Assembly (NCBI GenBank): GCA_963698035.1
Contig: OY969114.1
Coordinates: 120,001 to 152,000 of the forward strand
Length of the DNA stretch: 32,000 bases
Reading direction: 5' to 3'
Source of the DNA: Candidatus Saccharimonadota bacterium
GTDB taxonomy: Archaea > Micrarchaeota > Micrarchaeia > Micrarchaeales > Micrarchaeaceae
The translations under genes and the position numbers were made by a program. Under the pieces are notes generated by a model that was not told the DNA's origin, ran no database searches, and saw only the letters and a list, made by a program, of their open reading frames with translations. Positions 13,879-20,737 of the stretch are shown here, piece after piece; the first letter of the stretch is position 1; each line of letters opens with the position of its first letter.

Positions 13879-14910
13879 ATGGCAGCAAAAGAGAGTATAA
13901 GGGTGGCGCGTGGCGAGCCGGTGGGCGTGATCGCGGCGCAGTCGATAGGCGAGCCGGGGACGCAGATGGTGCTGAGGTCGTTCCACTCAGCAGGAATATC
14001 CTCGATAATCACGACGACAGGTCTGCCGAGGATCATAGAGATAGTAGACGGCAGGAAGAAGCCGAAGTTCCCGATGATGATGATACCCTTGGAGAAGTCG
14101 GTCAACAGGAACTACGAGAAGGTGAAGAGGATCTGGAAGGAGATCGAGGAGGTGAAGGTCACGAGCGTCATAAGCGGGTTCGAGGAGAACCTGAAAGGCG
14201 GCACGATGATACTCTTGCTTAACAGGGAAAAGATGGCGCACTACGACATAACCGCGAGGACGATAGCGAGCAGGCTCTCGAAAATGGAGGGCGTTGAGGC
14301 CACCATAGAGGGCGATACGATAAAGGTGAAGGTGAAGGACAAGGAGATAAAGAGCGTAAGGACCAGGTTCGTCAAGGTGAGGAACTCTGCGGTCGGAGGG
14401 GTGAGTGGGATCGTGAAGGTCGCGGTGCAGGAGGGCGACGGGGTCTTCTACTTCACCACGAGCGGCAGCAACATAGAGGGACTGCTCGAGATAGAGGGGA
14501 TAGACAAGGAAGGAATCTACAGCAACGACATATTTGAGGTCATGAGGGTCTACGGCGTGGAGGCGGCGAGGAACATAATTGCGAACGAGCTGCTGACCAC
14601 GATAGGCGAGGAGGGCATAACAGTGAGCTTCAGGCACCTTGGCCTTGTGGCGGACGCGATGACCCACACGGGCGTCATAAAGAGCGTGGGCAGGCACGGC
14701 ATAGCGGGCGAGAAGGAGTCCGTTTTCGCGAGGGCGGCATACGAGGAGACTGTAAAGCACTTCACCAACGCCGCCGTATTCGGCGAGACGGACTGGCTGA
14801 AGGGCGTGGCGGAGAACATAATAATAGGGAAGCAGATAGGGGTCGGCACCGGGAGGGTGAAGCTGACTGTGAAGAGGGAGGAGCTCAAGAAAATAAAGAG
14901 GGAGGACTGA
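13879..14910 (+). CDS. rpoA2: RNA polymerase subunit A'' (Rpo1C)
   Basis: 343 aa. [31 protein letters not shown]...[15 protein letters not shown] is the hallmark N-terminus of A''. [13 protein letters not shown] and [27 protein letters not shown] are also present. Confidence 0.9.
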
Positions 14911-14911
14911 A

Positions 14912-15136
14912 TTGCAGAACGAAAGGCCGTTCGACCTGCTGAACAAGGTTCTGGGAAAGACCGTGCTGGTCAGGCTGAAGAGCAACCTGAACGTACGGGG
15001 GAAGATAACATCGTTCGACGCGCACATGAACATAGTGCTAGAGGATGCCGAGGAGCTCGACGACGAAGGCACCAAGGCAAAGCTGGGAACGATACTGCTC
15101 AGAGGCGGCAACATTATATTCGTTTCCCCCGCATAA
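14912..15136 (+). CDS. Sm-like archaeal protein (SmAP/LSm)
   Basis: 74 aa with a TTG start 1 nt after the rpoA'' stop. PFDLLNKVLGKTVLVRLKSNLNVRGKITSFDAHMNIVLEDAEE...LGTILLRGGNIIFVSP carries the Sm1 and Sm2 motifs. Confidence 0.85.
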   Translation: MQNERPFDLLNKVLGKTVLVRLKSNLNVRGKITSFDAHMNIVLEDAEELDDEGTKAKLGTILLRGGNIIFVSPA

Positions 15137-15144
15137 TTATACGT

Positions 15145-15246
15145 GGGCTTCTGGCGCAACGGTAGCGCGCCTGCATGGCATGCAGGAGGTTGCGGGTTCA
15201 AAATAAACTTTTGTTTTCAAAGGTTATGGAAATCCCGCGAAGTCCA
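15145..15246 (+). tRNA. tRNA-Ala (anticodon GGC) with a ~30-nt intron inside the T-loop
   Basis: Hand fold:
- Acceptor stem GGGCTTC/GAAGTCC, including G3:U70, the alanine identity pair.
- D-stem GCGC/GCGC.
- Anticodon stem CCTGC/GCAGG with loop A-T-GGC-A-T.
- Variable loop AGGTT.
- T-stem GCGGG (15192-96) / CCCGC (15234-38), separated by 37 nt instead of 7.
- Discriminator A; no encoded CCA.
- Removing 30 nt restores the T-loop TTCAAAT. Confidence 0.8.
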
Positions 15247-15279
15247 CTTTAATGCGGGGATCAACTACAACGTGATTGC

Positions 15280-15801
15280 ATGGCTGACATCGAGGTAATA
15301 CTGGTCGACAAGAACGACAATCAGATAGGAGTAGAGCAGAAACTGAAAGCGCACCAGAACGGCGGAAAGCTCCATCGAGCCATATCGGTATTCATATTCA
15401 ATAAAAAGGGCGAGACGATGCTGCAGAGGAGGGCGCTGACCAAGTACCACGCGGCTGGCCAGTGGGGCAATACGGCCTGCAGCCATCCAATGCCGGGAGA
15501 GAAGACGATGGATGCGGCGCACAGAAGGCTGGGGGAAGAGATGGGATTCGACTGCGACATGAAGGAGGCGTTCCAATTCCGCTACAAGGCTGATGTAGGA
15601 AAGGGATTAACAGAGCACGAATACGACCACGTCATATTCGGATTGTATGACGGGGAACCCACCTGCAACAGCGAGGAGGTGGCGGAGTGGAGGTGGATGG
15701 CATTGGAGAGCCTGAAAGCGGACATCGAGAAGAACCCGGACAACTACGTGCCGTGGCTCAGGCTTATGATAGACAAAGTAATCGATGCCAGGAAGGCTTG
15801 A
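15280..15801 (+). CDS. idi: Isopentenyl-diphosphate delta-isomerase, type 1 (Nudix fold)
   Basis: 173 aa, colinear with bacterial Idi. Shared blocks are LHRAISVFIFNKKGETMLQRRALTKYHAAGQWGNTACSHP (catalytic Cys in the NxxCxHP context), AAHRRLGEEMG and TEHEYDHVIFG (catalytic Glu region). Confidence 0.85.
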   Translation: MADIEVILVDKNDNQIGVEQKLKAHQNGGKLHRAISVFIFNKKGETMLQRRALTKYHAAGQWGNTACSHPMPGEKTMDAAHRRLGEEMGFDCDMKEAFQFRYKADVGKGLTEHEYDHVIFGLYDGEPTCNSEEVAEWRWMALESLKADIEKNPDNYVPWLRLMIDKVIDARKA

Positions 15802-20664: not shown

Positions 20665-20737
20665 TGGGGAGTCCGAGATTTGAACTCGGGTGTCCAGCTC
20701 CCAAAGCTGGAAGTCTACCAGGTTAGCGTAACTCCCC
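20665..20737 (-). tRNA. tRNA-Pro (anticodon UGG), with an atypical D-arm
   Basis: Reverse complement: GGGGAGT TA CGCTAACCTGGTAGACTT CCAGC TTTGGGA GCTGG ACAC CCGAG TTCAAAT CTCGG ACTCCCC A. The acceptor, anticodon and T arms are perfect and the anticodon is TGG. The D-stem pairs poorly (CGCT vs AGAC). Confidence 0.75.

Follow-up and report, generated by a model that had tools for sequence, protein, structure and literature searches.

The window analysed here is a 32,000-nt stretch of a genome that is available as one contig of 776,853 bp (95% complete), and it contains on the forward strand, at 15145-15246, a tRNA-Ala(GGC) gene with an intron in its T-loop: the two halves of the T-stem are 37 nt apart, where 7 nt is normal. 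The 5' exon (15145-15202, defined by the sequence, the fold and ARAGORN on the spliced sequence) includes the 5' strand of the acceptor stem, the D arm (15154-15168), the anticodon arm (15170-15186, with GGC at 15177-15179), the variable region, the 5' strand of the T-stem and T-loop nucleotides 54-59. The 3' exon (15233-15246) includes T-loop nucleotide 60, the 3' strands of the T-stem and the acceptor stem, and the discriminator, an A at 15246 directly after the acceptor stem. The acceptor stem pairs 15145-15151 with 15239-15245 (G3:U70 included), the T-stem pairs GCGGG (15192-15196) with CCCGC (15234-15238), and the encoded 3' end lacks CCA. A preliminary description, made from the letters of this DNA, had proposed a tRNA-Ala(GGC) with a T-loop intron of about 30 nt, and this core reading is supported: checked letter by letter, all cloverleaf arms are canonical as it had stated, including G3:U70, and removing 30 of the 37 nt between the T-stem halves does leave a TTCAAAT loop.

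Directly upstream lies a gene for an Sm-like (LSm) protein (14912-15136, forward strand), which ends 8 nt before the tRNA gene and serves as a synteny anchor. The final codons of the Sm-like gene (Asn-Ile-Ile-Phe) contain a TATA-like string, ATTATATT, at 15113-15120, about 25-32 nt ahead of where the tRNA begins, and similar strings occupy the equivalent place in several relatives. This string may be a tRNA promoter inside coding sequence; alternatively, the tRNA and the LSm gene may share a transcript. The tRNA gene is also bracketed by an 8-bp inverted repeat, CCCCGCAT / ATGCGGGG (15127-15134 and 15253-15260). We considered this repeat as a conserved leader-trailer processing helix and rejected it, because complementarity in relatives is at chance level; the repeat is probably fortuitous or species-specific. 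Two mechanical ORFs overlap the tRNA gene, one of 404 aa (13987-15201, reverse strand) and one of 51 aa (15143-15298, forward strand), and gene callers could over-call both and mask the tRNA.

Standard tools do not recover the gene as it stands. ARAGORN, with and without its intron mode and on the window as well as the whole genome, does not call the interrupted tRNA-Ala(GGC), because its intron mode expects introns in the anticodon loop; this miss is a limit of the tool and no evidence against the gene. A search against Rfam at the gathering threshold gives no match at the locus, and in E-value mode the Rfam tRNA model gives only a partial, distorted match of 21 bits. The preliminary description had named tRNA predictors, and an intron-free copy elsewhere, as checks on its reading: ARAGORN rejects the raw gene and calls the spliced form tRNA-Ala(ggc), and no second tRNA-Ala(GGC) was found among the 42 Rfam and 37 ARAGORN tRNA matches of the whole genome, in which 15145-15246 is the sole tRNA-Ala(GGC) gene. 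The minimum free energy (MFE) structure of the 102-nt RNA, at -42.3 kcal/mol (z = -4.2), is a cloverleaf whose T-loop contains a hairpin, and none of 200 shuffles folds as stably.

A strict 3-4-3 bulge-helix-bulge (BHB) motif of the hBHBh' form fits the locus without mismatches, with two 3-nt bulges on opposite strands, a 4-bp helix between them, and an outer and an inner helix. Its outer helix is the 5-bp T-stem. The 4-bp central helix pairs UUCA (15197-15200; T-loop nucleotides 54-57) with UGGA (15227-15230, near the 3' end of the intron) through U-A, U-G, C-G and A-U, one pair thus being G-U. Bulge 1 is AAA (15201-15203), with the predicted 5' cut between 15202 and 15203, and bulge 2 is AAU (15231-15233), with the predicted 3' cut between 15232 and 15233. 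The inner helix h' with its loop (15204-15226, taken from MFE folds) pairs 15204-15206 with 15224-15226 and 15208-15213 with 15218-15223 around a UUUU loop (15214-15217) and requires a bulged A15207; the preliminary description had offered this register as an alternative, and it is the one that the MFE fold adopts. In archaeal BHB motifs the 4-nt helix strand comes before the 3-nt bulge on each strand, and archaeal EndA cleaves after the second bulge nucleotide. Applied here, this rule gives a 30-nt intron at 15203-15232, at tRNA position 59/60; no other strict-BHB register exists at the locus. The motif is strict, not relaxed; the preliminary description had failed to fit a strict motif by hand and suggested a relaxed one, a point that is overturned here and replaced by a fixed position.

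Cutting out the intron at the bulges leaves a canonical tRNA, as judged by ARAGORN on the spliced sequence (tRNA-Ala(ggc)) and by comparison with an uninterrupted orthologue. The predicted 72-nt product is identical (72/72) to the uninterrupted same-locus gene of G018, a genome from a related genus, which scores 66.2 bits with the Rfam tRNA model and is called Ala(ggc) by ARAGORN, versus the 21 bits of the interrupted gene. When strict 3-4-3 motifs were sought across the genome and each of the 9541 candidates was spliced and passed to ARAGORN, the locus came up in one register only, with the cut after 15202 and 30 nt removed. Deleting 30 nt after 15199, 15200, 15201 or 15202 yields the same 72-nt product and other registers fail, so the ambiguity of the junction noted earlier stands at the level of the product and the exact cut sites are unreadable from the mature tRNA.

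In the T-arm region the BHB conformer has -12.6 kcal/mol versus -14.9 kcal/mol for the MFE structure, that is 2.3 kcal/mol above it, with an ensemble probability of about 4-5% for each central-helix pair. Such a gap is usual for BHB motifs, and since the BHB conformer is not the MFE structure, the enzyme must select or stabilise it. The same fold leaves room for a reading in which a real intron is recognised through a relaxed motif (hBH or bulge-helix-loop) and not through strict hBHBh': in the MFE structure A15203 is paired with U15227, and 15197-15202 and 15228-15233 form an internal loop, and the epsilon2 EndA of ARMAN-2 accepts relaxed motifs (PMC3239211).

Comparison with relatives bears on this choice. 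We parsed the tRNA-Ala(GGC) gene of 38 relatives, which belong to two families of the order, and the loci are orthologous because the LSm gene is directly upstream in 35 of the 38 (tblastn), as it is here. An intron at the same T-loop site is found in 24/38, with lengths of 13-42 nt and largely unrelated inner sequences, and the other 14 have no intron, among them 7 of the 10 parsed relatives that belong to the same genus. We aligned the T-stem, the central helix and the first three inner pairs of the 24 intron-bearing orthologues. Overall, 95% of the cells in this alignment are paired, with 99% in the central helix and 80% in the first three inner pairs, which show 7-9 double changes each among the 24. 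The central helix is retained in 24/24 orthologues with compensatory changes; at its fourth pair, five sequences have G-C and two have G-U in place of A-U. No shuffle out of 500 attains the observed values, and slid controls are 37-54% paired. A conserved frame with a changing filling is the expected look of a splicing substrate.

These data weigh against the relaxed motif, which we consider improbable: the strict 3-4-3 motif fits with zero mismatches, and the retention of UUCA/UGGA with compensatory changes in all 24 orthologues would go unexplained if the central helix did not form. Less likely still is a cut at 56/57, 57/58 or 58/59 in place of 59/60. Cuts after 15199, 15200 or 15201 would leave the mature sequence unchanged, but only 59/60 puts both cuts in 3-nt bulges beside a 4-bp helix, and 59/60 is the site reported and cleaved in vitro by EndA in ARMAN-2 (PMC3239211). 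A decaying pseudogene, or a never-spliced tRNA with an enlarged T-loop, would fit the rejection of the locus by standard tRNA finders but is very unlikely for the sole GGC-anticodon alanine tRNA of a nearly complete, streamlined genome, with both exons perfectly conserved versus an intact orthologue and a splice motif that covaries across relatives.

The genome encodes putative enzymes for both steps of splicing. The EndA candidate, P0001 (386 aa, genome 397643-398803), identified by alignment and Pfam, aligns over residues 7-386 (E = 7.8e-166) with the structure of the ARMAN-2 epsilon2 EndA (PDB 4FZ2; Hirata et al. 2012, PMC3488258). In the ARMAN-2 enzyme Y236, H251 and K282 are catalytic and K161 is the specificity-loop lysine (PMC3488258), and P0001 keeps the residues aligned to all four. 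Pfam finds in its one chain a catalytic C-terminal domain and two N-domain stretches, and three tRNA_int_endo-like stretches are present in total. Judged from this alignment, P0001 closely matches a three-unit epsilon2-type EndA and is an orthologue of ARMAN-2 EndA from another species, with which it shares an end-to-end alignment, the catalytic Tyr/His/Lys and the loop lysine; it would act as a homodimer that cleaves strict as well as relaxed BHB motifs. The EndA architecture, which the preliminary description had left to be identified, is accordingly a predicted single-chain, three-unit, epsilon2-like one, and the earlier suggestion of an ARMAN-type host with a broad-specificity endonuclease gains support from the end-to-end match of P0001 to 4FZ2, which marks the organism as a Micrarchaeum-like DPANN archaeon. 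The ligase RtcB is also encoded in the genome (E = 9.6e-163).

In the proposed pathway, tRNA-Ala(GGC) would be transcribed as a precursor with a 102-nt body that carries the intron between T-loop nucleotides 59 and 60. The T-stem of this precursor would extend into a helix-bulge-helix-bulge-helix, with UUCA/UGGA as the central helix followed by the inner hairpin; homodimeric epsilon2 EndA would cut each bulge after its second nucleotide and RtcB would join both exons, with a 72-nt tRNA bearing a normal UUCAAAU T-loop as the expected outcome. Gene structure, motif, conservation, covariation and the presence of the enzymes are established, and we infer from them that the precursor is cleaved and ligated. 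Taken as a whole, a single tRNA-Ala(GGC) gene with a strict-BHB intron at 59/60, cut by EndA and joined by RtcB, is very probably the correct account of this locus.

An intron of this kind in the T-loop, at 59/60, is an already known feature in the Micrarchaeota-type lineage. In ARMAN-2 (Candidatus Micrarchaeum acidiphilum), tRNA-Cys(GCA) has a 13-nt intron of the hBH type at 59/60, and tRNA-Pro(GGG) has introns of the strict type at 53/54 and 59/60 (Fujishima et al. 2011, PMC3239211). The intron described here resembles these in its position, in the T-stem as outer helix of the BHB and in the predicted three-unit epsilon2 EndA of its host, and differs from them in that the host tRNA is Ala-GGC and the intron is longer (30 nt); tRNA-Cys(GCA), on the other hand, is uninterrupted in this genome. 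As related in PMC4033280, Thermoproteales have non-canonical BHB introns at many sites including the T-loop (Sugahara et al. 2008; Fujishima et al. 2010), and similar introns in different tRNA species have been read there as transposition (Fujishima 2010). The present case shares with them, as far as that account goes, non-canonical BHB introns that include the T-loop and sequences common to several tRNA species, whereas Thermoproteales are Crenarchaeota with a heterotetrameric (alpha-beta)2 EndA and the present host is a DPANN-type archaeon with a predicted epsilon2 EndA.

Introns at 59/60 are found in five tRNA genes of this genome, all with a UUCA/UGAA-type central helix: Ala-GGC (30 nt), Arg-UCG (31 nt), Arg-CCU (18 nt), Pro-GGG (16 nt) and Ser-GGA (about 17 nt, plus a canonical intron). 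The preliminary description was right that T-loop introns are real here, but with five in one genome and one in 24 of 38 relatives they are not as rare as it implied. The 59/60 BHB intron in tRNA-Ala(GGC) is genuine, well supported and ordinary for the lineage. Some other tRNA genes of the genome have features of their own. Both tRNA-Gln(CUG) (genome 623351-623444, reverse strand) and tRNA-Leu(UAA) (genome 360562-360658, reverse strand) have an insert in the D-arm region, and Rfam matches their 3' part only. At three intron-bearing genes the ARAGORN label is wrong, judged by the anticodon loop: Ala(tgc) versus a loop that reads Ile(UAU) (genome 382441-382553, reverse strand), Ser(aga) versus CAU, i.e. 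Met or Ile2 (genome 644576-644692, reverse strand), and Arg(cct) versus Leu(GAG) (genome 543627-543733, forward strand). In tRNA-Pro(UGG) (window 20665-20737, reverse strand), Infernal marks two of the four D-stem pairs as non-standard, a weak D-stem that matches the weak D-arm of tRNA-Pro(CGG) and tRNA-Pro(UGG) in ARMAN-2 (PMC3239211).

Within this genome, the Ala and Arg-UCG introns share 83% identity over their inner cores, a value reached by none of 2000 shuffles. The pattern GGTTCAAAATAAACTTTT, which joins the end of the T-arm to the start of the intron, is found with at most one mismatch in 42 out of 201 sampled genomes of the order (41/200 without G046) and at most four times per genome, and the reversed control gives 6 matches in total. 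After splicing, the hosts of introns with this pattern are Ala-GGC, Arg-UCG, Arg-CCU and Arg-UCU; by sequence reading, Ser-GGA also hosts an intron of the UAAACUUUU family, with a different T-stem (CTGGG or TTGGG). The Ala intron is a member of this 'UAAACUUUU' family, which occurs in several tRNA genes across the order and suggests mobility. We consider it about as likely as not that the core 'UAAACUUUU...GUUUA' marks a family of BHB introns that are mobile in this order of Micrarchaeota, moving or being copied from one tRNA gene to another at 59/60, with Ala-GGC, Arg-UCG, Arg-CCU, Arg-UCU and Ser-GGA as its candidate hosts. The Ala and Arg introns of G011 share 93% identity, compared with a maximum of 58% to any orthologue, and in G000 and G003 the identity of Ala and Arg(UCG) introns within the genome is barely above that of the best orthologue. 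Mobility is plausible and not established, because the excess is marginal in G000 and G003 and clear in G011 alone; for the same reason, we do not claim recent gene conversion that would have homogenised the Ala and Arg(UCG) introns of the genome studied here. A 'long form' of the UAAACUUUU intron, found in the relatives G001, G003, G009 and G167 (loci L009, L024, L050, L087 and others), has inside it a segment, ...AAAGUUUAAUCAAAAG..., in which part of the inner helix's 3' strand recurs; this looks like an internal duplication offering two alternative hairpins.

For annotation, the set of alanine-decoding tRNAs in a streamlined genome becomes complete with the intron-bearing gene, one that standard finders overlook and long spurious ORFs overlap. 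The 24 intron-bearing orthologues, with one constant 3-4-3 frame, are a natural mutational series that shows what an epsilon2 endonuclease requires at a T-loop site. A mobile family, if true, would mean transposition or homing of tRNA introns outside Thermoproteales, in hosts with an epsilon2 and not an (alpha-beta)2 endonuclease, and presence and absence within a genus, together with the shared family, make this a tractable case for the gain, copying and loss of archaeal tRNA introns outside Thermoproteales.
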